Assembly: GCA_044892525.1 (NCBI GenBank)
Contig: CM097885.1
Coordinates: 8,682,001 to 8,746,000, forward strand
Length of the DNA stretch: 64,000 nt
From: Schmidtea polychroa
Taxonomy: Eukaryota
Reading direction: 5' to 3'
Shown piece by piece: positions 48,150 to 64,000 of the stretch. The stretch's first letter is position 1; each line of letters starts with the position of its first letter. The notes beneath the pieces are model-generated. The model did no database searches, was not told where the DNA came from, and was given only the letters and a program-made list of their open reading frames with translations. Both the position numbers and the translations under genes were made by a program.

Positions 48150-48225
<76 letters not shown>

Positions 48226-48374
48226 CTTTAAACAGCTTGCAAGGTTACTAGTCATGCTTATTATACATTTGATGGTTACAATTTCTACATTTTGAAAACT
48301 ATATTTTGATTGGCTATCACAATTTTATAAATGTAAGAACAAAAGTAATTTAGTTATTAAGAAATTTATTACTA

Positions 48375-49013
48375 ATGATTTCTATAAATAAAACTGATGA
48401 ATGTGTAACACATTTGGTAACTTTATTATTTTGTCAATATTTTTTTTATATATACCATTTATAGCAAGGAAGTCCTACTAGAAATAAGGAAAAATTATGT
48501 CCAACCTATTCCGAAATTTCATTGAAATTTTTTAACAACACAGTTGAAGATTTTATAAATAATCATGATACTTACAGTGATAAGCAACTCATAAATATTT
48601 TAAAGATTTTCAAACATTCCTCTATTGAATATTTGTTTGATTTATTTAATTATGAGAAATCCATTTTAAAGTTATCTTGTTATTTAATGTACTTAGAAAA
48701 AATAGCAGTAAACAATGATTCACTGAATGAATACTTTTGGAGTTGTATGTATTTAAGGTTGAAACCTGGATATAGTAGATTGATTTATGATTGGATAGCA
48801 AAAACCGATTTGATTGAAAATAAGCTAACGAAAAAACTGAACGAGGTTAAGAAAAGGTATTTAACTTGTTCAATTTGTAAAGAAAATCGAGTTTCGGTTT
48901 TGTATTTACCATGTGGTCATGTAATTGTTTGTTCTAAGTGTCACGAGAAGAATGTTCGCAAGTGTCAAGCCTGTTCAACATTGATTAATGAATATCATAC
49001 TATATATATTTAG
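48375..49013 (+). CDS. RING-finger protein copy 48 (last unit)
   Basis: Same protein; the 3' flank has an extra TTTGTTGA and a G>T change in the 15-bp repeat. Confidence 0.85.
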
Positions 49014-49175
49014 TTTACCTTTGTTAATTTTACATTATTTTATTGTTTAAATAAATGTATGTTTTGTTGATTTGTTGATTTGTTGAGCGTGACCAGTACC
49101 CTTGTGAGCATTACCCATAGGGGGACAAAATATTTTGTCGGATAGACTCGGATTATATAGACTCGGTGTATATAG

Positions 49176-49245
<70 letters not shown>

Positions 49246-49278
49246 TCTTTAGAAATAATAATCTTAATAACAAGATAT

Positions 49279-49323
49279 ATGGCTCATTCGAAAGGCCTTG
49301 GATCGAGCTTTAAAATGAGCTAT
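49279..49323. repeat. Imperfect inverted repeat (hairpin)
   Basis: GCTCATTCGAAAG ... CTTTAAAATGAGC. Confidence 0.6.
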
Positions 49324-49430
49324 CGATTTTTAATTTTCGTTGACGGGAACTTTGAAAAAAAAATTTAAAATAAAATAATAATATTTTTTAAAAATAATAA
49401 TAAAAATAATAATATTTTTAAAAATAATAA

Positions 49431-49828
49431 TATGACCTTGATGACTCATCGCGATGACTCATATGACCTTGAGAATGACCTTGGATGAGTCATACGACCT
49501 TGAAAATGACCTTGGATGAGTCATGCGACCTTGAAAATGACCTTGATGAGTCATAGGATGACTCAGACGACCTTGAAAATGACCTTGAAAAATTTTGATG
49601 AGTCATAGTATGAGGCATATGACCTTGATAATTTTTGATGAGTCATAGTATGAGTCATATGACCTTGAGAATGACCTTGAATGAGTCATATGACCTTGAG
49701 AATGACATTGAATGACTCATATGACCTTGAGAATGACCTTGAATGAGTCATATGACCTTGAGAATGACCTTGAGTGAGTCATATGACCTTGAGAATGACC
49801 TTGAATGAGTCATATGACCTTACTCATG
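49431..49828. repeat. Degenerate ~31-bp minisatellite of TGACCTTG and TGA(G/C)TCA motifs; possible Polinton subterminal/TIR repeat
   Basis: Unit ATGACCTTGAGAATGACCTTGAATGAGTCAT repeated with variants. Confidence 0.85.
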
Positions 49829-50191
49829 CACTTGTATTGCATATGTCTTTGTATTACACACCTTAAGGATAGAAAAATATTTCTAAGCGAGATCTAAAGT
49901 GAATGTGTGTAAAGGGCAATAAATAAGGGTAAAATCAAAATTTTTTAAGAAAATACATGTAATTTGATTAAAATTTATGAAAACTATATATATATTTGTT
50001 TTATTTTGGTCAGATAATCTATGTGTGTCTGTATATGAAAACATTGATAAGGAGCAATAAATAATGGACGGTTTTACTCACACACAAGTTTTATATCATT
50101 CGAAAGTCTACTATATATAATACATAATTGAATCGAATCAAAATAAGGGTAAAATAAATGGTAAAATAAAATGGTCATTATCAGACATTTA

Positions 50192-50311
<120 letters not shown>

Positions 50312-50502
50312 CTATTTATTTTAAATAAAAATATGTAATTATGATCATAGTTAATTTAAGCACATATTTATTTCACTTTTCACAAAATAATTTTAAAATA
50401 CCACAACGTAATATATTTTCTATCTTAATTTTAATTGGCTGGAGAAAAAAGTATGCTTTTCATTATAAACATTTTCATTATTACAAAATAACTTTAGAAA
50501 TA

Positions 50503-50554
50503 ATGATCACAGACATCGATTACGAAAATGGTATTTTCATTATTTTTTAATTCA

Positions 50555-50591
<37 letters not shown>

Positions 50592-50794
50592 TTTCTAGAT
50601 AGCGATTGTGTCATAATTGAAGAACATTTTGTTACTTCGATACCTGCAAACGAATATGGACGAAAAAGTTAAATAATAATAATTCATTGCTTATTCTTAA
50701 TTGTCTTTTCCAGGAAATTTTAATGAGGATTCAGTTGATGATTCAGTTGCTTGTGCTGCTGGAACTATTGAATATTTCGCAAAGAAGATAAAAT
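50503..50794 (+). CDS. Putative spliced host-type gene fragment (exons 50503-50530, 50599-50667, 50714-50794), unknown product
   Basis: Three phase-1-compatible exons with GT-AG introns of 68 and 46 nt give MITDIDYENDSDCVIIEEHFVTSIPANEYGRKRNFNEDSVDDSVACAAGTIEYFAKKIK, followed by a GTAAGT donor at 50795. Confidence 0.45.
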
Positions 50795-52208
50795 GTAAGT
50801 AAATTACAAAATTTAACTTAGATTTCTAGTTATATATTTCTTTGTTTAAGAAAATTTAAATTAGTAAAAAATGATATTTAATCAGATGTTCATATTTAGA
50901 TGAATTCATTTAAATAAATTTCTTAAAATTAATGAAAATTAGTAATATATTAATTATTAATTAAAATTAGTACAAAGTTAATATATTTACTGAAATTATT
51001 TTTTAGACAATATTTTAATTATTGATAAGGAATATTATTTTTTACTATAAGTAATCTAATTATAGAAAAGATATTTATTATACCAGAATTAAACAGAATT
51101 CTGTCACTGATGTCAAATTAAAAAAATATAAACTTCTGCTTTTGATATCTCTGAGAATAATTTTCTAAAACAATTTTCATGAAAAATAGGTGAAGAAATT
51201 ATATACTTTACCTGTTAAAGAAAAGTATGACTACAAAAACAATTGATGTTTCAGATTTTCAATATATAATATTAACAATTTTAATTGTATTATAAAAATT
51301 TCAGATTTGAAGATAAAAATGTTCATTTATGCAACTCAAATTTTTGCCCAAGTCCTTTGAAGCATAAATAATATACGTATCACATAAATACAAATATATT
51401 GATATATAAACTGAAAAAAAAGTACAAAGTTAATATATTTACTGAAATTATTTTTTTAGACAATATTAATATAGTTATTGTTAGTTTATTTTAACTATAT
51501 TACGACGATCAACTTTAATTTTATTATAAAAAAAAAATGATGAAAGTATAAATAAAACTTCATTTTAAAATCGAATTTTTATTTGCAATATTATTTTTAC
51601 ATTAATCAACTAAGATGAGATTAATTTAAAATTTGATTGCATCACGAAACTTCTAGTATTTCATGTAAGTGAAATTAAAAGTATATGGATTGTTAAATAA
51701 TTGTCATATTTCTATAGTTCTTTGTTTAAGAAAATTTAAAATAGTAAAAAAAAATGATATTTAATCAGATGTTTATTGGTAAATATTTAGATATTTAGAT
51801 TTAGATTTAGATTTAAATAAATTTCTTAAAATTATTGAGAATTATTGAGACTTTCACTCCAAGGGCCATATATAATAAATTAGTACAAAGTTCAAATTTT
51901 AAATGAAATTTATTAGACAATATATATATTTTTTAACTATATAAAGACGTTCAACATGAATTTTATTATAAAAAATAATGAAAGTATAAATGAAACTTCA
52001 TTTCAAAAATATGAATTGTGATAAAAAAAAAATTGAACAATTTTGAAATAACTAAGGGCATTCAATAATATTGTAACTCATTAAATAAAGTTTACATAGT
52101 GAGCTAAATGCTGCCCTTGTCCATTTTTATGGTGTATAGCGGTGAAAAATAAATTTAGAATCGAATGGCCAATACCACTATACTGCAGTTCCAGATTTAC
52201 AGCGATTA

Positions 52209-54779
52209 ATGAATTGTAGAAAAACTCATAGTTGCCCAGTCCGTATTCAATGCAGATGGTGCGAGACATGTTTAAATGGTTTTAGAAGAGAAGATGCTTT
52301 TGACAGGCATGTAGCTTTATGCAAGAAAAACCAATTGGGCACAACATTATACACGTTGCCAGAAAACTCAGATTTAAAATTTAATGACTGGTCAAAAATG
52401 GTAACTCCGCCTTTTGTTATATATGCTGACTTCGAAGCTGTTTTACCTCTTGATGAAAGACAACACCAAAAACATTTACCTATAGCAGCGGGGCTGTTAC
52501 TGGTAAATAATTTTACTGGGTCAACGAAATACAGTCATTTTATTGGACCAGATTGTGTATACAGATTTCTGATGGATGTAGAAAATATTGTCAACAATAT
52601 AGTGAAGGTTTATTATAAGACAAGTGGGCATTGTCAAATGAAATTTTTGACAAATCAGGAAAAGCTGCAATTCCACACAGCTGTCAATTGTTACTTGTGC
52701 AAAAAGCCAATGCCAGAGAAAGTGAAAGACCATGATCATTTCACTGGCAAATATCTCGGAGCCTCATGCAATGTATGCAATCAACAAAGGAAAATCAGAG
52801 AAACATTACCCATCGTATTTCATAATCTGAAAGGGTATGATCTACATCACATTTTGAAATATGGGCTCAATCAATTTCCTCATTGGAGTCTCAGCTGCAT
52901 ACCAACAAGCACAGAGAAATTTTTAACATTGATAGCATGGCTGGGTAAATTTACAATAAGATTTATTGACTCATATCAGTTTGTCAATACTTCATTACAT
53001 AATGCAGTAAAAACATTGAACGAATTGCCTTTGACCCGTTCAGTATTCAATACTGGAACCATCATAAACAACAAAGGAATTTTTCCTTATGATTTTGCCA
53101 CAAGTGAGGAAATATTAGAAACAACATATGAATTGCCCGCTATTTGGGAAGGCGTTACAAATGAAGAGTATATAATAGCGCAACAAATATGGCAAGAAAC
53201 AAGTTGCGAAACTCTAATGGATTATTTACAAATTTATTTAAAACTTGATGTGTTTTTACTTGCCGATTTTTTCCAACAATTTCGAGCAAGATCAAAAGCA
53301 CATAATGGACTCGAGCCACTCAATTTTTTTGGAATCCCTGGAATGTCTTGGGCATCTGCGCTCATGACCTTAGAAGAACCAGTGGAATTACTGATGGACA
53401 TGGAGATGTATAATTTCTTCGAGGATGGGATCCGTGGTGGTCTCACATTTGTAAATAAACACTTCGCAGTAACAGATGATGAAACAGAGTTGCTTTATAT
53501 CGATATAAACAACCTGTATGGGTGGGCGTTAAGCCAATACTTGCCATGTAGCGATTTTGAGTGGATATATAATGAAGTGGAATTATTATCCATTTTAGTT
53601 GACTGTATTAGTTCGAAACTAGAAAATTTAACTTATGGATACACATTGGAAGTTGATTTAGTCATCCCGTCAAATATCCACGACCTATTAGACGATTTCC
53701 CAGTCGTAGCAGAGAAAATGTGTCCACCAGATTCAAATGTACCAAAATTATTATTAACCCATCATGCGAAAACTAATTATGTTATTCATTGGAGACTTTT
53801 GAAATTATATATGGCCCTTGGAGTGGAAGTCACCAATATACATCGGGCAATAAAATTTACACAAAAGCCGATATTGAAGGATTATATCAACACAAATACC
53901 CAACTTCGAGCTGAATCACAAAATAGTTTAGATAGAGATTTTTATAAACTTTTAAATAATAGTGTTTACGGCAAGACAGTGGAGAATCTGAAGAAAAGAA
54001 TAAATCTGAGATTGTGCAACAATGCCGAAAAATTGGTTAAATACACTTCAAAGCCAACATTTAGACGTTCAATTAAAATTGCTGATGATTTGATTGCCCT
54101 TTTGCTGAATAAAGATGTAGTTTGTTTAGATAGGCCTAGCTACATTGGTCAAACAGTGCTAGACTTATATAAACTTAGAATGTATGAACTACAATATATT
54201 GAACTGTCAAAATATCGAGCACAGTTCAATTGCCAAATAAATATCATAGCCGGGGATACAGACTCATTCTTCCTCGAATGTAAATATGTCAAATTGCGAT
54301 CACAATTACTTCCTGCAATGAATGCTGACGGATTGTTAGACACCAGCAACTACGATCCTACAGATCCATTATATTCACGAAATTTGGATTCTGTAATTGG
54401 GAAATTCAAGGACGAAAACAAAGGCAAATCATATGAAGAATGGGTATTCCTCAGACCCAAATGCTATAGTTTGCTAACTAGTGATAATGATACTATAAAT
54501 AAAGCCAAAGGTGTATCATTAAAGGGAACAGAAATCACACATCAATCGTATGTGGATTGTTATCTTGGAATGCATATACCGAAGGTGAATCAATCCCGGT
54601 TTGATACACGAAACCATCAATTATTTACATTTAGAACTAAGAAGGTAGCCCTTACAAATAACGATGATAAAAGGGTTTGGGTTGAAGAGAACAAGAGCTT
54701 CGCATATGGGCATTATAATATTTTAGATAATGAATTAAATAATATTTTGCCTCTTGATGAATCATCTGCAGACGAATGA
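52209..54779 (+). CDS. polB: Protein-primed family B DNA polymerase, probably 5'-truncated
   Basis: Zn-finger CETC...HVALC; ExoI YADFE; endonuclease VII-like insert CYLC...KDHDHFTGKYLGASCNVCN; ExoII FHNLKGYD; KGIFPY; ExoIII YLKLDVFLLAD; Pol A YIDINNLYG; Pol B KLLNNSVYGK; Pol C GDTDS. No terminal-protein region is seen upstream. Confidence 0.95.
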   Translation: MNCRKTHSCPVRIQCRWCETCLNGFRREDAFDRHVALCKKNQLGTTLYTLPENSDLKFNDWSKMVTPPFVIYADFEAVLPLDERQHQKHLPIAAGLLLVNNFTGSTKYSHFIGPDCVYRFLMDVENIVNNIVKVYYKTSGHCQMKFLTNQEKLQFHTAVNCYLCKKPMPEKVKDHDHFTGKYLGASCNVCNQQRKIRETLPIVFHNLKGYDLHHILKYGLNQFPHWSLSCIPTSTEKFLTLIAWLGKFTIRFIDSYQFVNTSLHNAVKTLNELPLTRSVFNTGTIINNKGIFPYDFATSEEILETTYELPAIWEGVTNEEYIIAQQIWQETSCETLMDYLQIYLKLDVFLLADFFQQFRARSKAHNGLEPLNFFGIPGMSWASALMTLEEPVELLMDMEMYNFFEDGIRGGLTFVNKHFAVTDDETELLYIDINNLYGWALSQYLPCSDFEWIYNEVELLSILVDCISSKLENLTYGYTLEVDLVIPSNIHDLLDDFPVVAEKMCPPDSNVPKLLLTHHAKTNYVIHWRLLKLYMALGVEVTNIHRAIKFTQKPILKDYINTNTQLRAESQNSLDRDFYKLLNNSVYGKTVENLKKRINLRLCNNAEKLVKYTSKPTFRRSIKIADDLIALLLNKDVVCLDRPSYIGQTVLDLYKLRMYELQYIELSKYRAQFNCQINIIAGDTDSFFLECKYVKLRSQLLPAMNADGLLDTSNYDPTDPLYSRNLDSVIGKFKDENKGKSYEEWVFLRPKCYSLLTSDNDTINKAKGVSLKGTEITHQSYVDCYLGMHIPKVNQSRFDTRNHQLFTFRTKKVALTNNDDKRVWVEENKSFAYGHYNILDNELNNILPLDESSADE

Positions 54780-55110
54780 TAATGATTAATGGTAATGATT
54801 TATCCGTTTTATTTTTAAAAATATTTTTATTTTTATTTTAGTTTCTGTACAGTTTCTCCAGTTTTGACACAGTTTCTGAACAGTTTTGAAAACAGATGAG
54901 AACGAACCACCAATATAATGATTCATTTGTAACTTTTGTAATGGCACTTGTTGTAACCAATATAATTGTCCTTTTAATGCATATTGGTTCTCATAATTAT
55001 GTTTATTTTTATTGCGTTGGTTCTCTTTTGAGTCCTAAATATTTTATTGTGAATGTGTATACGTCCTCTTTAGGACTGCAAATATTGATTGCATTTATTG
55101 TTGAGAAACG

Positions 55111-55330
<220 letters not shown>

Positions 55331-55445
55331 TTAATAAATTCAAGGCTCAAAATATATTTTTATATATATTTTACATTTATTATACATAATTCAGTAACGA
55401 CTTTGTTTAAATAAAGTAACACAACATTTTTTACAATACATTTAT

Positions 55446-55824
55446 TTAACAAAGATGTTTATACATTAGCCAAGCTAGACAATGTTGTCCACAAGTATTT
55501 GTTAATGGATGTTGAAACCGAATTTTATTGTAATCAACTTGACCAATAGTTGATAGCTTTTTGATCAATAGGGCTGGATAGTAAAATCCCATTGGATCGA
55601 AAACATATATTTTATTCGGCTTCACATAGACTGCAATCCAATGTTCTCCACCCAGAGTAGACGAATCTGTGTTGACAATTATGGCTTGATTCACATCTAA
55701 ATAGGGGATTTTGTCTAGTGGGTACACTCCAACAAACTCTTTACCTAATATTTGAGTACCAATTCGATTTATCTGAATAGAACTAACATAATAATTTTAT
55801 TAGTTTAAAGAAAACTTACTCCAT
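55446..55824 (-). CDS. Adenain-like (C5/Ulp1-fold) maturation cysteine protease; spliced 55824-55820 + 55782-55446, 113 aa
   Basis: A 37-nt intron GTAAGT...CTAAT...TTAG restores MDSIQINRIGTQILGKEFVGVYPLD. Catalytic motifs GEHWIA, FDPMG, RFQ, TCGQHC. Confidence 0.88.
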
Positions 55825-55853
55825 GACAAATGTATTTCGATTTATTCACACAT

Positions 55854-55997
55854 TTATACTAGCACAGTTCTATTTGCAGTAATTTGAACTTCATTTTCAA
55901 ATACTCCATATATAATAACATGTACCGGTTCAGTAATGGCTCTTGCAAACTTTATATCCAGTCGTAAATTCCCGTTTTGTGGTAATTGACTCTGATT
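55854..55997 (-). pseudogene. C-terminal remnant of the double-jelly-roll major capsid protein (PY/hexon)
   Basis: Translates as NQSQLPQNGNLRLDIKFARAITEPVHVIIYGVFENEVQITANRTVLV*, resembling the Polinton MCP C-terminus. In-frame stop immediately upstream; expected position just before the protease. Confidence 0.75.
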
Positions 55998-56094
55998 TTA
56001 GCCATCCTGATCCGTACTGTTTACCAACGAAGTATGGTAATTCACCGCCAGATTGGCTATCACTATACATACTAATAATATCAGAATTAGCCAT
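55998..56094 (-). pseudogene. N-terminal remnant of a Gly-rich putative core protein
   Basis: MANSDIISMYSDSQSGGELPYFVGKQYGSGWLK overlaps the penton stop. The QxGGxLPxFxG..QxGxG pattern is typical of the small Polinton gene downstream of penton. Cut by the deletion. Confidence 0.6.
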
Positions 56095-57154
56095 CTACTT
56101 TACGAAAATGTAATGTCAAATGAGTATTCGAATCTTTTGGAAAGTTTATAAGGTTTCCACTATCGTCACGAATATTTATTTCTATATTGTTTATACATGA
56201 GCTTGCAATTGGTAAATACATGGGATTATCGATATTTATATTGACAACTTCATCGTGTTCATATTTTCCAATCCATACCGATTTCAATAGAGGAACACTG
56301 GAATCACCAACAATTATGGGCTCAATAATATTAGTATATATGAACATTTGTTGATGATGTTCAAGTATTCTTGGTTTACGTATACCATCAGCTTTTCCTC
56401 GATATTTTTGCTTCTCTAATCCAAGTGTATTTGTCAAATTTTTATCAAATGTAACTTCGCAAATTTCATCATTCAAACTGAAAGTAAACAACAAATCTTT
56501 CACAATGTCCAAACTTTTAAATATGTGTGAACAATTGTACTTTAAATATTTAAGTAACACATCAAGTTTATCAATATATAATTCGTCAGCAAAGGTGAAT
56601 GATTTCTCAACTTCATTATTATACGACACTGATATTTTGATTTCTTCTTTCATTAAACTGTTTGCTTCAAATAGATCAAAACGTAATAAATATTCTGTTT
56701 CCATAACATCATTTTTCAACTTATTGCAACCCATTCGTTTGGCATCTTCAATAGTTTCGAATGTTATTGTAAATGGTTTAAAATCACAACTGATATTTAA
56801 TCCATCCTTGTAAAATATATAGCAATGCTGATCTAATATTTGATTCGGAATATGATATGTTTTATCATAATTACTGATGACAAAGATACCGCTACATGTT
56901 TTCAGAACATTCTTTTTGAAATCAATCTTACATTGACTATAAAATGGGAATGTGTTGTACACGAATGTAAAATCTTGAAGTGCAACTTCCCAGTCACCAT
57001 TTAAAGAAATCGGATTCTGGAGATTGACCATGAATTTGCTGAATTGATTGTCCGGATGAATTAATGGGCAGCTATTGCTTGGTAAAATAGTATAGAAATT
57101 CACTTTACTAGGTCCTTTTCTGATATCCATGATGGGTTTTGATATCCATGCCAT
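56087..57154 (-). CDS. Minor capsid protein (penton, PX)
   Basis: FYTILPSNS...PDN..SKF.V.L.NPI.L.GDWEVAL; MFIYTNIIEPIIVGDSSVPLLKSV; YLPI...INNIEINIRDDSG...LTLHFRK. The start may be the second Met (MDIRK). Confidence 0.85.
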   Translation of the reverse strand: MAWISKPIMDIRKGPSKVNFYTILPSNSCPLIHPDNQFSKFMVNLQNPISLNGDWEVALQDFTFVYNTFPFYSQCKIDFKKNVLKTCSGIFVISNYDKTYHIPNQILDQHCYIFYKDGLNISCDFKPFTITFETIEDAKRMGCNKLKNDVMETEYLLRFDLFEANSLMKEEIKISVSYNNEVEKSFTFADELYIDKLDVLLKYLKYNCSHIFKSLDIVKDLLFTFSLNDEICEVTFDKNLTNTLGLEKQKYRGKADGIRKPRILEHHQQMFIYTNIIEPIIVGDSSVPLLKSVWIGKYEHDEVVNINIDNPMYLPIASSCINNIEINIRDDSGNLINFPKDSNTHLTLHFRKVDG

Positions 57155-57738
57155 TTGACATAGTATTGTTTATCCTTGCCGACCTTTTTAGTTTTCAATA
57201 TTTTTTGAATTCTTAATACTTTTGGAGGAGGAATAACTTGTAATTCTTGCTCATAAAATTTTCCTTGTACAATATTATTATCATTGTCTTTAATGACATA
57301 CATTACTTGACTCTGGCTAGTATTTATTTTCAAAATTACAAAGACTTCATCACTCCAATTTGTATCGAAATTTTTTATAAATGGTGATGCACTAATTTTA
57401 CTAATTCTAACATGGTCACCTACTTTATATTTAGGTTTTGCAATTTTTACATGTTTTTTAGAATAGAATGTTTTTGAAGTGATATCAATCGGTCTTAATC
57501 CATTCAGTCCTCGATGTGATGAATGATTATAACTGGTTATTATTTTTGGTAAAATATTTACCCATTTTTTATTACCTTGATGCACAAATAATTTCTTTAA
57601 TCTATCTCTCAAAGTTCGGTTAAATCTTTCAACATAAGCTGCTTTGTATTGAGAATATACTGTGTAATGGTTTATTTTCAGTTTATTGAGGATTTGCTTG
57701 ACTTTACTGTTGTAGAATTCTTTACCTAAAAAAAAAAT

Positions 57739-57800
<62 letters not shown>

Positions 57801-58188
57801 CTAAATCTGTTTGCAAGTTATTAGGATGTCCTTTTTTAAATAAATTATTAATAGCTTTGGACATTTCATCTGCAGATTTTGCCTTGACTGGAATCGCTCG
57901 GGCAAACCGACTGAATACATCAATACATGTTAAAATATATTTATAACCATTGTTAATTTTTGAATATGGTATCATCTCCATCAAATCCATTTGCCATAAA
58001 TCGTTTATTCCAAATGTTTTATATGTTCTTGTTGGGAATCGTTTCTGCATTGGTTTGTTCAAACTGTACGCAAGCTGGTCTGATAACCACTTCTGGGTTT
58101 CCTTTTTCGAATTTGGAACTCTTTTCTTTAATTTTGCGACTCCACCGAAACCCGCTTCGTCTTCTGGGTTTGTCCAAATCTTCTCCAT
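57100..58188 (-). CDS. Retroviral-like DDE integrase with C-terminal chromodomain; 75-nt intron at 57800-57726
   Basis: WQMDL, YILTCIDVFSRFA, LQTDLG|KEFYN after splicing, VERFNRTLR, YNHSSHR; chromodomain IQKILK...YYVKWHGY..SWI. Confidence 0.95.
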
Positions 58189-58246
58189 TACAACAAGAAG
58201 ATTTAATATTAAATTTAATGTCAGGTAATGAAGGATTAGCTCCCAT
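58019..58246 (-). CDS. Small basic protein with N-myristoylation motif, overlapping the integrase 5' end in another frame
   Basis: MGANPS (MGxxxS), a CC pair and a basic patch. The ATG lies 3 nt after the upstream gene's stop. Confidence 0.4.
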   Translation of the reverse strand: MGANPSLPDIKFNIKSSCCNGEDLDKPRRRSGFRWSRKIKEKSSKFEKGNPEVVIRPACVQFEQTNAETIPNKNI

Positions 58247-58249
58247 TGT

Positions 58250-58738
58250 TTATGACTGTGTTACTCCACCTAATAATGATAATGCCAAAGGTATCAATGC
58301 ACCAATAAATCCGCCTTGTTGTTTATATATAATTTTTCTCATTTGTTTACGATTTTTATTATTTACTAATGATAACAAAGGTTTCCTATGTTTACTCAAT
58401 ATATGCTTTTTGGATTTACTGATTTTAATCTTGCCTTTGACTACTTTAAGTATAATATCCAGTAAATCATCGACAACAAAATTTGGAAATGATTGCAAAA
58501 TATTCATTCTTTTTATACTCGGTGCCTTTAACAATGTATTAAAAAACGGGAAACTCCGATGATTTTTAACAACTTTTAATTTCTTACTGGTTTTACGGTT
58601 AGGTTTAGGTTTAGGATTTTTCGAAATAAGATTTTTTGCAGGAAAATTTTCAGTAACAAGTTCTTTAGATGGAGTATAACTAGTGGTTGGTGGAATTTTT
58701 GGTTCTTTCTTCCTTGTTATCCTTGTTTTTGAAAACAT
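58250..58738 (-). CDS. Lys/Arg-rich putative virion core protein with GG/F protease site and hydrophobic C-terminal helix
   Basis: Very basic; ends RKIIYKQQGGFIGALIPLALSLLGGVTQS; lies between ATPase and integrase. Confidence 0.7.
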   Translation of the reverse strand: MFSKTRITRKKEPKIPPTTSYTPSKELVTENFPAKNLISKNPKPKPNRKTSKKLKVVKNHRSFPFFNTLLKAPSIKRMNILQSFPNFVVDDLLDIILKVVKGKIKISKSKKHILSKHRKPLLSLVNNKNRKQMRKIIYKQQGGFIGALIPLALSLLGGVTQS

Positions 58739-58750
58739 GTTTTATATGTT

Positions 58751-59389
58751 TCAACTTTGTTTTGAATTTTGTTTATAAACCATGGCACCTTTTGGGTTGA
58801 AAATATCAGTTTTTACCCGTAAATCATCAGGACATTGTTGTGTGAAATCAAGAAATATATATCCATGCGGTATTTTAGTAGCATCTTGAAATGCACTGAT
58901 AAGAAAATTACGGTTATTAGGGTATGCTTGTCGTCCAAGAAAATCAATGACAGTTGCATCTCTAGGATTCTTGAAAATAACTAAATATTGTACATTTAAA
59001 TTACGTGTACGATGTGCACCACCTTGATGAAATAGATTTTGTGTTATGAAAATAACTGTTACACCGACATGTCTGCTGATTTTTGTGAATAAATTATTAA
59101 AATCTTTTTCTTTATTGGCTTCTTGGTATAAATCATCGATAATGATGACATCACCTTTCTTCAACCGACTGGACCAGTTTTTATCAAATCCCTTTACTAT
59201 TTTCATGTTTTTCAACTGACAGAAACTTGATTGCGTCAATCCATGTTCTTCGTCGGCGCCCCTATGCCAATAAATATTGTTGAATTTTGTTTTGAATAAA
59301 TTTGATTTTAGTATTTTACAAACAAATAATGTTTTTCCGCTACCGCTTGGACCAACGATTTGGTATACTGCATCATTTCGTAATTTCAT
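58751..59389 (-). CDS. FtsK/A32-like genome packaging ATPase
   Basis: Walker A GPSGSGKT, Walker B VIIIDDL, SRH...IFITQNLF, RTRNLN.QY.VIFKNPRD, PHGYIFLD. Confidence 0.93.
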   Translation of the reverse strand: MKLRNDAVYQIVGPSGSGKTLFVCKILKSNLFKTKFNNIYWHRGADEEHGLTQSSFCQLKNMKIVKGFDKNWSSRLKKGDVIIIDDLYQEANKEKDFNNLFTKISRHVGVTVIFITQNLFHQGGAHRTRNLNVQYLVIFKNPRDATVIDFLGRQAYPNNRNFLISAFQDATKIPHGYIFLDFTQQCPDDLRVKTDIFNPKGAMVYKQNSKQS

Positions 59390-59490
59390 TTTTTAAATTT
59401 AAACTACATAATTATTGTTTATATTGATAATTTAAATGAACTCCGTTTTAAAATAAATATATATATGAGTTTTATAATTATTTCATTAAA

Positions 59491-59955
59491 ATGCTTTCAA
59501 ATATAAATTACAGAGCAAAAGCTGATGTATCAAAAATGGTATTTCCAATGGGGAAACCACAACAACTTATCAATAGAAGTAAAAAATATCCCATAATATA
59601 TTTCAAAACTGGTAAATGTAGAATTATGGGGTGTAAGGAAATAATCAAAGCTAGTGAATATAATGTTTATGATTTAAAAATACAATCGATAACCGTAACT
59701 TCCTATATGGGTTTTTCTTGTAATTTAAATGAATTGGCTAAATTAATACCATGTGTTTACGAACCAGAATTATTTCCAGCTTTGAGATATATAAAATATA
59801 ACCCTATGTGTGTAAATATATTCGCTAGTGGTAAGATAGTAATTCTTGGAATAAAAAATATTGATTACAAATGTATAGTTGATAATATCATATCTGAAAT
59901 TAAATCAATAATTGAAGGAAAAGAATTTTTAAATTTTTTATTATCACTTAATTAA
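59491..59955 (+). CDS. TATA-binding protein (TBP)-like protein
   Basis: Two TBP half-repeats: IIYFKTGKCRIMGCK and IQSITVT...NLNELA...YEPELFPALRY...VNIFASGKIVILGIK. Confidence 0.85.
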   Translation: MLSNINYRAKADVSKMVFPMGKPQQLINRSKKYPIIYFKTGKCRIMGCKEIIKASEYNVYDLKIQSITVTSYMGFSCNLNELAKLIPCVYEPELFPALRYIKYNPMCVNIFASGKIVILGIKNIDYKCIVDNIISEIKSIIEGKEFLNFLLSLN

Positions 59956-60091
59956 TAATTTTAAAAAATAAAATCATGTGATTGCAAATTCGATGCAACT
60001 GAAATGCATGATTCTGATTGGTCGAAATCTAATTGGCTGATGATGATTATTTATAACAAAATGTTTTGGGTTTAGTTATCATTTTTAAACC

Positions 60092-60464
60092 ATGTATAAT
60101 ATTCAAAGTTCAGCTATAGCTGCCATGAAAGAACATGAACATTATGGTAAATTTAAATTTTTTAATATTAATTGTATTTATCATATTATTATTATTTACA
60201 GATGAATATCATGCAATAATACTGGAAAGATTGTATTTTTATTACCCGCAATTGTATGATATTCTCAAAGATCGAGATGTTGCAATAATCCCAGATTTAA
60301 TTTACAATGAAACCAGAATCTGGATTTTCGATATTATCAATACATTTCTCTGGGATGTGAAGATTGGAAGAACAATGAAGGAAGTGGAAGCAGAATACCC
60401 TTGCATTTTGGGATGTAGCTGTTGCAATTTCGCTACCAGAGATATGTCGAATGGTCTTTGGTAA
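60092..60464 (+). CDS. Hypothetical accessory protein; spliced 60092-60146 + 60202-60464
   Basis: ATTGG x2, TTATAA and TTAGTT upstream; AAACCATG start; 55-nt GTAAAT...TTACAG phase-1 intron gives MYNIQSSAIAAMKEHEHYDEYHAIILERL...CILGCSCC. Confidence 0.6.
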
Positions 60465-60575
60465 AGACACTTCGTAATTATCATTTTTGTCAAATTTTAT
60501 CCAAATAAATTTTTATGTTTAACTATTTGTTGTTTTATTTTTTTTTTAGTAAATAGTAATAGAAATATAAATAAG

Positions 60576-60680
<105 letters not shown>

Positions 60681-60867
60681 AATGAAATTAGTTTGAAAGT
60701 AATAAAAGCAATAAAAATAATAATATGACACATATAACATATGACAATGCAACATCAATGCATTTTGAATGTAATTAAAACAAAGACATACTGCAATTTG
60801 ATTGGTTTATAAACAATAGTCATATGTATAAAAACCCTGTACCATTACAATTCAATCATAATTCACG

Positions 60868-61290
60868 ATGACCAAGAAAATATCAAGCACAGAAAAACCA
60901 AAGGTTGTTGTTGCAGAACTTGTACAACCTGTTCAAATGTTCCACGACTACAAAATGTATTTTTTAAAAGAAGAAATCAATATGAAATTGGTGTCACCGA
61001 TCAAGCTAATTTCTACTCAATTTCAATTCTTATCCGGCACACTTTCAATGATAGATGTTGAATCTATTGATGAGGTTTTCAAACGGTTGGATGCAAATCT
61101 ATCATGTAATCAACATGCATGGTTCAACAACCGATATGCAAGATTTTATGATTCCTTTGATGAAATCAGCTTTAAAGAAAACGAAAATTGGTATATAACA
61201 ATAGCAATCTTGGGATATAAAGTTGATAATAATGATGTGTATTCTCCAATTTGGAAAATTATGTCTGCTAGACTTTCACAGCTATTTTAA
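60868..61290 (+). CDS. Hypothetical 140-aa accessory protein (possibly an OB-fold ssDNA-binding protein)
   Basis: ATG ORF with ATTGG/TATAAA upstream and AATAAA downstream; beta-rich aromatic C-terminus WYITIAILGYK...SPIWKI. Confidence 0.65.
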   Translation: MTKKISSTEKPKVVVAELVQPVQMFHDYKMYFLKEEINMKLVSPIKLISTQFQFLSGTLSMIDVESIDEVFKRLDANLSCNQHAWFNNRYARFYDSFDEISFKENENWYITIAILGYKVDNNDVYSPIWKIMSARLSQLF

Positions 61291-61448
61291 TAAATGTTGC
61301 TATATTTATTGTTTTTAATAAATGTATTTTGTCCTATTTGTTTTTCATTTACTTAACCAGGAAATTGCAATATCAATGCAAAATACATGCAAACTTTAAA
61401 AAAGACATTCTATAAACAAACTTACATTATAGTTTTAAAGTGTTAATA

Positions 61449-61870
61449 ATGACGTTAGAAAAAGGTTAATATGGTTAGTTAATGATCGAATTATTTATTG
61501 TTTAGAACATTTAATCAACTTTTTGTTGGCAAAATTAGCAGAAATATCTGGTGTAAAAATGGAGGATATATTATCTGTTTCAAATGCATTAAATATAGAC
61601 TGGGTAGCCGAGAGTGAAGATTCAAGATTTGATGAAACTGATGAGGAAATAACAGAACAAATTAATGAAGGAAACACACAAGAAGATGACGAGGAAATCA
61701 TTCAAGAAATTGATGAACCTATTGATGAACCTAAGGAGGAATTTACGGATTATATAACTGAAAATATTAAGTATACCGAACCGCGTGTATATAACGATTG
61801 TATAGATCATATCGTTGAAAATGTTATGAAATGCGGAGATGATGAATGTGAATGTGTTAATAAATTTTAG
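61449..61870 (+). CDS. Hypothetical acidic accessory protein; spliced 61449-61464 + 61506-61870
   Basis: TATAAA at 61411; 41-nt GTTAAT...TTTAG phase-1 intron gives MTLEKEHLINFLLAKLAEISG...; D/E-rich centre and Cys-rich end. Confidence 0.55.
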
Positions 61871-61971
61871 TTTGAGTGTATATTTAAAGTATAATATTTA
61901 TAAATAACAACATTAACTTTTATTTAAATATTTAAACATTACATATATTAGGTAGAAGTGAGCCCACGATA

Positions 61972-62044
61972 ACTCATCGTTAAGGTCAACTTAAGGTCAT
62001 AGAAAATTTTGAGGTCAACTTAAGGTCAATGTCATTTTCAATAA
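61972..62044. repeat. AGGTCA repeat cluster (reverse-complement relative of 49431-49828); truncated TIR-like segment
   Basis: TAAGGTCAACTTAAGGTCATAGAAAATTTTGAGGTCAACTTAAGGTCAATGTCATTTTCAA. Confidence 0.6.
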
Positions 62045-63594
62045 AAATTTATTTAAAACTTGATGTGTTTTTACTTGCCGATTTCTTCCAACAATTTCGA
62101 GCAAGATCAAAAGCACATAATGGACTCGAGCCACTCAATTTTTTTGGAATCCCTGGAATGTCTTGGGCATCTGCGCTCATGACCTTAGAAGAACCAGTGG
62201 AATTACTGATGGACATGGAGATGTATAATTTCTTCGAGGATGGGATCCGTGGTGGTCTCACATTTGTAAATAAACACTTCGCAGTAACAGATGATGAAAC
62301 AGAGTTGCTTTATATCGATATAAACAACCTGTATGGGTGGGCGTTAAGCCAATACTTGCCATGTAGCGATTTTGAGTGGATATATAATGAAGTGGAATTA
62401 TTATCCATTTTAGTTGACTGTATTAGTTCGAAACTAGAAAATTTAACTTATGGATACACATTGGAAGTTGATTTAGTCATCCCGTCAAATATCCACGACC
62501 TATTAGACGATTTCCCAGTCGTAGCAGAGAAAATGTGTCCACCAGATTCAAATGTACCAAAATTATTATTAACCCATCATGCGAAAACTAATTATGTTAT
62601 TCATTGGAGACTTTTGAAATTATATATGGCCCTTGGAGTGGAAGTCACCAATATACATCGGGCAATAAAATTTACACAAAAGCCGATATTGAAGGATTAT
62701 ATCAACACAAATACCCAACTTCGAGCTGAATCACAAAATAGTTTAGATAGAGATTTTTATAAACTTTTAAATAATAGTGTTTACGGCAAGACAGTGGAGA
62801 ATCTGAAGAAAAGAATAAATCTGAGATTGTGCAACAATGCCGAAAAATTGGTTAAATACACTTCAAAGCCAACATTTAGACGTTCAATTAAAATTGCTGA
62901 TGATTTGATTGCCCTTTTGCTGAATAAAGATGTAGTTTGTTTAGATAGGCCTAGCTACATTGGTCAAACAGTGCTAGACTTATCTAAACTTAGAATGTAT
63001 GAACTACAATATATTGAACTGTCAAAATATCGAGCACAGTTCAATTGCCAAATAAATATCATAGCCGGGGATACAGACTCATTCTTCCTCGAATGTAAAT
63101 ATGTCAAATTGCGATCACAATTACTTCCTGCAATGATTGCTGACGGATTGTTAGACAGCAGCAACTACGATCCTACAGATCCATTATATTCACGAAATTT
63201 GGATTCTGTAATTGGGAAATTCAAGGACGAAAACAAAGGCAAATCATATGAAGAATGGGTATTCCTCAGACCCAAATGCTATAGTTTGCTAACTAGTGAT
63301 AATGATACTATAAATAAAGCCAAAGGTGTATCATTAAAGGGAACAGAAATCACACATCAATCGTATGTGGATTGTTATCTTGGAATGCATATACCGAAGG
63401 TGAATCAATCCCGGTTTGGTACACGAAACCATCAATTATTTACATTTAGAACTAAGAAGGTAGCCCTTACAAATAACGATGATAAAAGGGTTTGGGTTGA
63501 AGAGAACAAGAGCTTCGCATATGGGCATTATAATATTTTAGATAATGAATTAAATAATATTTTGCCTCTTGATGAATCATCTGCAGACGAATGA
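62045..63594 (+). pseudogene. polB: Second, 5'-truncated copy of pPolB (duplicate of 53230-54779)
   Basis: Offset 8815 bp; identical except 4 amino-acid changes and at least 1 silent change. The first codons of the track ORF derive from the repeat. Confidence 0.93.
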
Positions 63595-63770
63595 TAATGA
63601 TTAATGGTAATGATTTATCCGTTTTATTTTTAAAAATATTTTTATTTTTATTTTAGTTTCTGTACAGTTTCTCCAGTTTTGACACAGTTTCTGAACAGTT
63701 TTGAAAACAGATGAGAACGAACCACCAATATAATGATTCATTTGTAACTTTTGTAATGGCACTTGTTGTA

Positions 63771-64000
63771 TACATGAGCTTGCAATTGGTAAATACATGG
63801 GATTATCGATATTTATATTGACAACTTCATCGTGTTCATATTTTCCAATCCATACCGATTTCAATAGAGGAACACTGGAATCACCAACAATTATGGGCTC
63901 AATAATATTAGTATATATGAACATTTGTTGATGATGTTCAAGTATTCTTGGTTTACGTATACCATCAGCTTTTCCTCGATATTTTTGCTTCTCTAATCCA
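63771..64000 (-). pseudogene. Second copy of penton, C-terminus removed by a 1238-bp deletion
   Basis: 63771 onward matches 56194 onward and is joined directly to the equivalent of 54955. Confidence 0.9.

Follow-up and report, generated by a model that had tools for sequence, protein, structure and literature searches.

How a 1-kb gene unit came to be repeated over almost 50 kb, and what part the microsatellite between its copies played in that, is the question that this locus raises. The window, the whole stretch of 64,000 nucleotides analyzed here, is occupied from position 1 to 49244 by a head-to-tail array of at least 48 full units of ~1.02 kb each, which extends past the window's left end (coordinates refer to the + strand unless the − strand is named). 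The initial annotation had placed the right boundary of this array inside an (AAT)n tract and had proposed that one gene flanked by two such tracts was duplicated by recombination between them.

The array is highly regular. Positions 64 to 49244 contain 49 perfect (AAT)n tracts, and an identical stretch of 25 bases that ends in TAGATT precedes every one of them. The sequence that follows is AAAACTTTAAAC at 46 of the 49 tracts and AAAATTTTAAAC at two, while the last tract, a run of 22 units at 49179–49244 that forms the right edge of the array, is followed by ATCTTTAGAAAT. At all 48 inner junctions the sequence is TAGATT-(AAT)n-AAAA[C/T]TTTAAAC, at the terminal one TAGATT-(AAT)22-ATCTTTAG, so the difference between internal and last units stands as it had first been described. 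A constant junction between head-to-tail units (48/48), together with a simple-sequence tract both at the junctions and at the right edge, is the pattern of a two-step tandem amplicon bounded by a simple repeat. The tracts are 11–35 units long (33–105 bp), with a mean of 24.6. The 48 unit bodies measure 949 bp, except for the last, at 957 bp. They fall into seven distinct types, 36 of the 48 being identical, and the 47 inner bodies show a mean pairwise difference of 0.45 per 949 bp, which indicates that the array is young.

Such uniformity raises the concern that the array, or its length, was created by assembly around a microsatellite-bounded repeat. The 36 identical bodies would fit that explanation, as would the mapped contigs, none of which covers a whole unit; in the mapped runs (4 of the 24 listed), no unit-spanning read confirms the copy number. 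An artefact does not readily account for seven distinct bodies, for neighboring units that share single-nucleotide polymorphisms (SNPs) together with tract lengths, for two adjacent tracts of 11 units each amid an array mean of about 25, or for the occurrence of the inner-unit allele in public contigs. We regard it as highly improbable. The array is a real feature, and its mechanism class is an ordinary and known one.

The position of the right edge provides the first evidence on the founding event. Tracts make up 7.2% of a unit, and a random edge would land inside one about 7% of the time; an edge within the tract is ~14 times likelier than a random breakpoint would give, for what is a single event. 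The proposed microsatellite-mediated founding is borne out in part: the edge does lie inside a tract, as would happen by chance in only 7% of cases, but the same edge is expected from one tract combined with AT-rich microhomology. A founding junction within the microsatellite is plausible and is the reading that we favor, and a two-step origin with its junction in the tract, taking all versions together, is probable. In its fullest version, a rare event would have linked two (AAT)n tracts, one downstream and one upstream of a RING-finger gene, through out-of-register annealing or template switching, with a TAGATT-(AAT)n-AAAAC junction as its product. The partners were probably two non-identical copies of a high-copy RING family. 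With two 1-kb copies then in tandem, ordinary unequal exchange at any point of the 949-bp body, a step for which part of the evidence is given below, would have raised the number of junction-bearing units to at least 48; tract-body-tract blocks would have been copied as wholes and the outermost 109 bp alone left unhomogenised. Slippage may later have varied the tract lengths over their range of 11–35 units. This combination of a tract-to-tract founding junction, unequal exchange in the body and tract slippage is our best explanation, and we consider it evenly poised between right and wrong.

A founding event that used one tract only would leave the same junction. Here the downstream (AAT)n would have stalled or broken a replication fork, with a microhomology of a few A/T bases, ~950 bp upstream, serving to re-prime the strand (MMBIR or MMEJ); the left edge of the array would then be tractless and the second step unchanged. 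The right edge fits one-tract and two-tract origins alike, the other deletion in the window used a 2-bp microhomology, and the variants of the inner units fall no more than 120 bp from the junction. On both sides of the tract, hairpins are predicted at most 100 bp away, as in the trigger-site model of PMC6393310, which also reports mutations near MMBIR junctions. In the single-copy right flank (49245–49430), which begins with a decayed AAT-like stretch, such hairpins are predicted at 49272 (−6.7 kcal/mol) and 49377 (−6.6 kcal/mol); they rank in the top 3% of 3,146 windows, yet hairpins of this strength are spread all along the region. Tracts, moreover, are common in this Polinton DNA, with three in the 9.9 kb of the neighboring fragment, and a second tract at the locus is not unlikely. 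The 8-bp form of the inner units also occurs in a run from another study, so a repair error is not needed to explain it. We consider the one-tract origin possible but doubtful.

For the two-tract reading, an upstream tract receives weak hints from three sources. A distant relative (L008) carries (AAT)4 on both sides of its gene, six near-identical RING proteins lie on contigs of only 662–1077 bp, and on the minus strand a GT stands at the edge of the array tract, as it does in the intron-like insert of the neighboring integrase. CTTTA occurs 2–4 bases past both the inner and the last tracts, an arrangement found in 0.9% of 9-base windows and noticed post hoc, which we take as a hint. The unit start was also considered as a relic of an integrase exon lying beside an intron and was rejected, a profile of 120 integrases giving only E ≥0.68 (control 5e-32). 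Gapped DNA scoring of the unit start against the flank of the integrase intron gave p 0.0005 at 40 bp and p 0.009–0.04 at 60–250 bp; ungapped, the two agree at 13 of 20 positions and then at background level, with no codon-position bias.

The last unit carries further information on the founders. The last inner junction tract, (AAT)23 at 48153–48221, is followed by AAAACTTTAAAC and then by the last body (48222–49178, 957 bp), the first 840 bp of which equal the majority inner type. Two differences set the last unit apart from the 47 inner ones: 8 additional bp near 49063 (49063–49070), which form a third copy of a short repeat and within the array occur only there, and one base at 49153. Both private variants lie inside its last 109 bp, and both sit in short tandem repeats. 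Short tandem repeats mutate easily, and a second founder copy is therefore not required by these two variants. The form with the extra 8 bp is also present on a contig from another study, where an X9 contig covers 49037–49158 without a gap. The inner 8-bp form is the rare one among the organism's contigs (4 of the 24 listed runs mapped), with 17 contigs in X1 (depth 23,052 of 1,930,726), one in X16 and none in X5 or X9. The occurrence of both 8-bp forms outside the array suggests that two different copies of the family acted as its founders.

How the array grew is a separate matter from how it was founded, and on this the tract lengths and the linked variants argue against expansion driven by the microsatellites. 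Units 2, 3, 7, 8 and 9 are distinguished by a SNP at body position 320; in that order, their upstream tracts have lengths of 28, 21, 28, 21 and 21 units and their downstream tracts of 21, 22, 21, 21 and 22 units. These give four identical tract pairs per side (p 0.006–0.008 by shuffles; span p 0.0008), a comparison made post hoc. A crossover inside a tract tends to change its length; since the lengths linked to this SNP were kept, tract-driven expansion is disfavored. The last unit agrees with this, its private variants lying only in its last 109 bp: their clustering has a probability of 0.013 under swaps of whole bodies confined to the tracts and of 0.84 with exchanges at any place, the founders being assumed to be 3% apart. 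Across the array as a whole, tract-length periodicity was not significant (p 0.039 at one lag of 12, p 0.21 for repeated pairs and p 0.36 for triples), and the SNPs shared at positions 5 and 585, in two units each, have no tract lengths in common. We favor a tract that seeded the array and a growth that proceeded by the long 1-kb homology instead of by the tracts.

Growth through a circle has also to be weighed. A 1-kb circle excised between two tracts could have multiplied through rolling-circle replication before homology brought it back into the body of a resident copy, which would likewise leave the last unit with a 3′ end of the resident type. Extrachromosomal amplicons are reported for P. 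falciparum (PMC8246734). One rolling-circle round yields uniform units, whereas the tracts here span 11–35 units, and the SNP-marked blocks recur at a five-unit offset, which points to stepwise growth. A circle is unlikely.

The 3′ module of the last unit (49079–49178), which contains a 15-bp tandem repeat and includes the second private base at 49153, allows yet another reading. It is far more abundant than the RING gene in the organism's contigs, and the summed contig depth of 49079–49146 amounts to 1.9–10.5 times the RING average in three runs, contig depth being a poor measure of copy number. The last 100 bp and the (AAT)n could on this basis be the tail of a separate high-copy repeat, either the 3′ end of a retro-element or a shared terminal module; the tract would then be a passenger at the junction, and the array edge would be the end of that repeat. 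Loose contig ends around 49076–49112 would fit such a boundary, yet the consensus of several represents the same sequence in diverged form. To the right of the tract the flank consists of decayed AAT and shows no fresh target duplication, and Rfam gave no match at E 0.5 across 48150–52200. This origin is quite unlikely, and exchange in the body of a unit whose junction lies in the tract remains the reading that we prefer.

By analogy, the two-step A/T-tract amplicons of P. falciparum appear to be the closest precedent for this history. In PMC3662640, amplicon junctions lie in A/T tracks in 8 of 8 cases, and later growth by homologous recombination keeps the founder unit. The DHODH amplicons of PMC3662640 and PMC6393310 share with the array an AT-rich genome, head-to-tail units and a simple-sequence tract at the junction. 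The founder unit is kept exactly and copies are added by homology there, and probably likewise here. In contrast to the homopolymer tracks of ~30 bp in those sources, the tract at this locus is a trinucleotide (AAT)n of 33–105 bp. The present array also differs from what these sources describe in its 1-kb unit, its copy number of at least 48, its mobile-element cargo and its lack of known selection; on the side of the array, the comparison covers the right edge.

The amplified gene gives the array its biological context. In the last unit, an open frame at 48465–49013 encodes a helical region and a C-terminal IAP-type RING finger (PF13920, 38.2 bits; cut-off 27). The frame is open in 48 of 48 units and identical in 42; five of the remainder have one change in a conservative region, and one has a change at a RING cysteine. 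A candidate 48-nt GT..AG intron precedes the RING exon (48417–48464) and has its ends kept in 48/48 units; no contig joint matching it was found among the matches listed for the organism's contigs (4 of the 24 listed runs). The C-terminal C3HC4 RING agrees with membership among IAP proteins (PF13920 above cut-off). A BIR domain is absent from the 181-aa frame, in which Pfam finds RING families only, and upstream exons beyond the unit are possible. A second helical repeat or a BIR remnant in the 5′ 300 bp of the unit was rejected, the best matches to family motifs there reaching only E 0.14.

A family profile built from 15 RING relatives matched 28 metagenome loci. Polinton core genes stand beside the RING homologue in three of these in the form of an ATPase gene, with integrase and PZ-like genes too at two of the three. 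In L011 and L018, a RING-family member of 153 aa is single-copy, intronless and immediately upstream of the ATPase, from which the gene order continues with integrase and PZ-like and, in L018, also with pX-like and capsid genes. The L011 protein matches the family profile with a probability of 99.6 over 141 columns, and the L018 protein reaches 31% over 62 residues. The RING family is thus carried as cargo in relatives L011, L012 and L018. This linkage of homologues to Polinton core genes in L011 and L018 is what identifies the amplified RING family, on sequence grounds, as Polinton cargo.

Within the organism, the RING gene belongs to a large and diverse family: 19,414 X1 contigs map to it, most of them 90–99% alike, in a mapping that covered 4 of the 24 listed runs (X1, X5, X9 and X16) and omitted the stretches 48195–48233 and 49167–49205. 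Single-protein scans of viral and metagenome contigs found no relative. DNA pattern scans gave 7, 0 and 1 loci, none of them a family locus, and two of the eight align over only 18–19 bases, which we take as chance. An atlas search with the RING protein returned RING clusters at 0.81 or less. Further cargo lies next to the RING gene in related elements (L011:190–3328 and L016:2191–4002), among it candidates for a dual-specificity phosphatase and for a TRAF-like RING/MATH protein. Bcl2 and IAP homologues are noted in adintoviruses in PMC8502044; the unit described here differs from the Polintons with IAP homologues of that source in being without a BIR domain.

A Polinton fragment at 52155–62040 lies beside the array. 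It comprises pPolB (+, 5′-cut), then protease, a capsid end fused to a pX-like start, PZ-like, integrase and ATPase (−), and TBP-like plus small open reading frames (ORFs; +). The array is in this way adjoined by the set typical of Polinton/Maverick elements (adintoviruses): pPolB, chromodomain integrase, A32-like ATPase, C5 protease and double-jelly-roll capsid end. The initial annotation had described (AAT)n tracts between other genes of the same element. Tracts do exist at 55111 and 60579, but the former is on the other strand, and a third, at 57742, lies inside the integrase. All three lie in the Polinton fragment, which is cut at ~52155, 2.9 kb from the array, where pPolB is truncated at residue 374 of a 1242-aa relative; that they share an element with the array is at most a supposition. 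The tract at 55111–55333 is imperfect and, unlike the array tracts, runs on the − strand (ATT on +); a deletion in the copy at 63770 skips it. The tract at 60579–60674, (AAT)32, lies between two small ORFs, and no rearrangement is seen there. A 19-unit run at 57742 fills a 75-nt GT..AG phase-1 intron-like insert in the integrase (57726–57800, −), in a motif that is contiguous in 120 of the 120 listed relatives (of 1,784 found) and also in L011 and L018. This pattern makes the insert a candidate for a recently gained, microsatellite-filled intron. The insert is almost all (ATT)n, has TTTAGGT at both ends in the manner of a target duplication, and is of a length that keeps the frame open.

A second partial copy of the fragment occupies 62042–64000 (+), directly after an AGGTCA motif block, and is 99.6% identical. 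Its internal deletion joined 54955 to 56192 with a 2-bp microhomology and removes the 55111 tract entirely. At 55857–56088 (−), the start of a pX-like gene is fused to the last 47 capsid codons, the rest of both genes being deleted relative to L018. A TBP-like gene at 59491–59955 (+) stands head-to-head with the ATPase, as is also found in L018.

These rearrangements bear on the suggestion that microsatellites may act as modular recombination points, which finds no support here. Six breakpoint positions represent four events: the polymerase cut, the pX-like/capsid fusion at ~55997, the start of the second copy (53227, 62042) and the deletion (54955/56192). They lie 156–2911 bp from the nearest tract, and 0 of 6 are inside one. 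Tracts make up only 3.6% of the Polinton-fragment DNA, so this count indicates no preference rather than avoidance. The tracts are also not consistently intergenic, co-oriented and conserved in relatives, one of three being on the opposite strand and one of three inside the integrase. No AAT run of more than three units was found in the 6.9 and 7.2 kb of L011 and L018, which implies that the tracts were acquired in the host and are not part of the element's design. They would be microsatellites of the host type that expanded within resident Polintons, in introns and spacers, and not modules built into the element for recombination. A modular recombination system made of microsatellites is not supported.

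The size and structure of known elements bear on the setting of the array. Polintons measure 13–25 kb according to 10.1101/2023.08.22.554363, and the 49-kb array exceeds this; it therefore probably arose in the chromosome. In vertebrates, intact Mavericks have no introns and terminate in (AGT)2/(ACT)2 or (AG)3/(CT)3 (PMC8097293); the intron-like inserts seen here contrast with this. No end motif of the vertebrate type was found between 48222 and 52155. A search of titles and abstract openings in the literature returned no title on a Polinton gene array or on an AAT-bounded array.

Macrosatellites and gene-bearing tandem arrays are characterized by near-identical kilobase units, local SNP blocks, a divergent terminal unit and unequal exchange. 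The array shares with macrosatellites the near-identical units, the local SNP blocks and the divergent last unit, and differs in that its unit is the cargo of a virus-like element and is punctuated by a hypervariable microsatellite. In poxvirus gene accordions, a single host-interaction gene of a DNA virus is amplified in tandem; the present array, in contrast, is chromosomal and too long for the element. If its left edge also has a tract, the locus would show cleanly, and in nature, how a trinucleotide microsatellite can seed the amplification of a gene in an animal-type genome, and Polinton cargo would have become a young macrosatellite with a record of its growth in tract lengths and SNPs. 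Since the mechanism class is already known, the array is a convenient test bed more than a surprise. Its importance would be greater if the RING gene were expressed and selected. A broader scheme holds that microsatellites in resident Polintons make accessory genes excisable as 1-kb cassettes, with the RING cassette, a possible ubiquitin ligase, as an expressed and selected accordion and circles moving the cassette between element families; we consider this very unlikely.

The stretch between the array and the Polinton fragment has several features of its own. A block of 31-bp repeats with TGACCT and TGA[CG]TCA motifs (49433–49821) may be the sub-terminal region of a Polinton. An inverted AGGTCA block lies at 61983–62028; the two blocks are inverted in motif and do not align to each other. 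We take these motifs to resemble nuclear-receptor half sites and AP-1 sites. A run of (AT)63 at 50195–50319 has TTATCT at its end and might represent the right-hand limit of the array-bearing element. At 50503–50794 (+), outside the Polinton genes, there are three short candidate exons with GT..AG introns, one of which contains an (AT)n run; they were rejected as a pPolB leader, 11 full-length relatives having no match upstream of 52149. Degenerate repeats, spaced at ~450 bp and 72–88% alike, fill the AT-rich stretch from 50827 to 52008.
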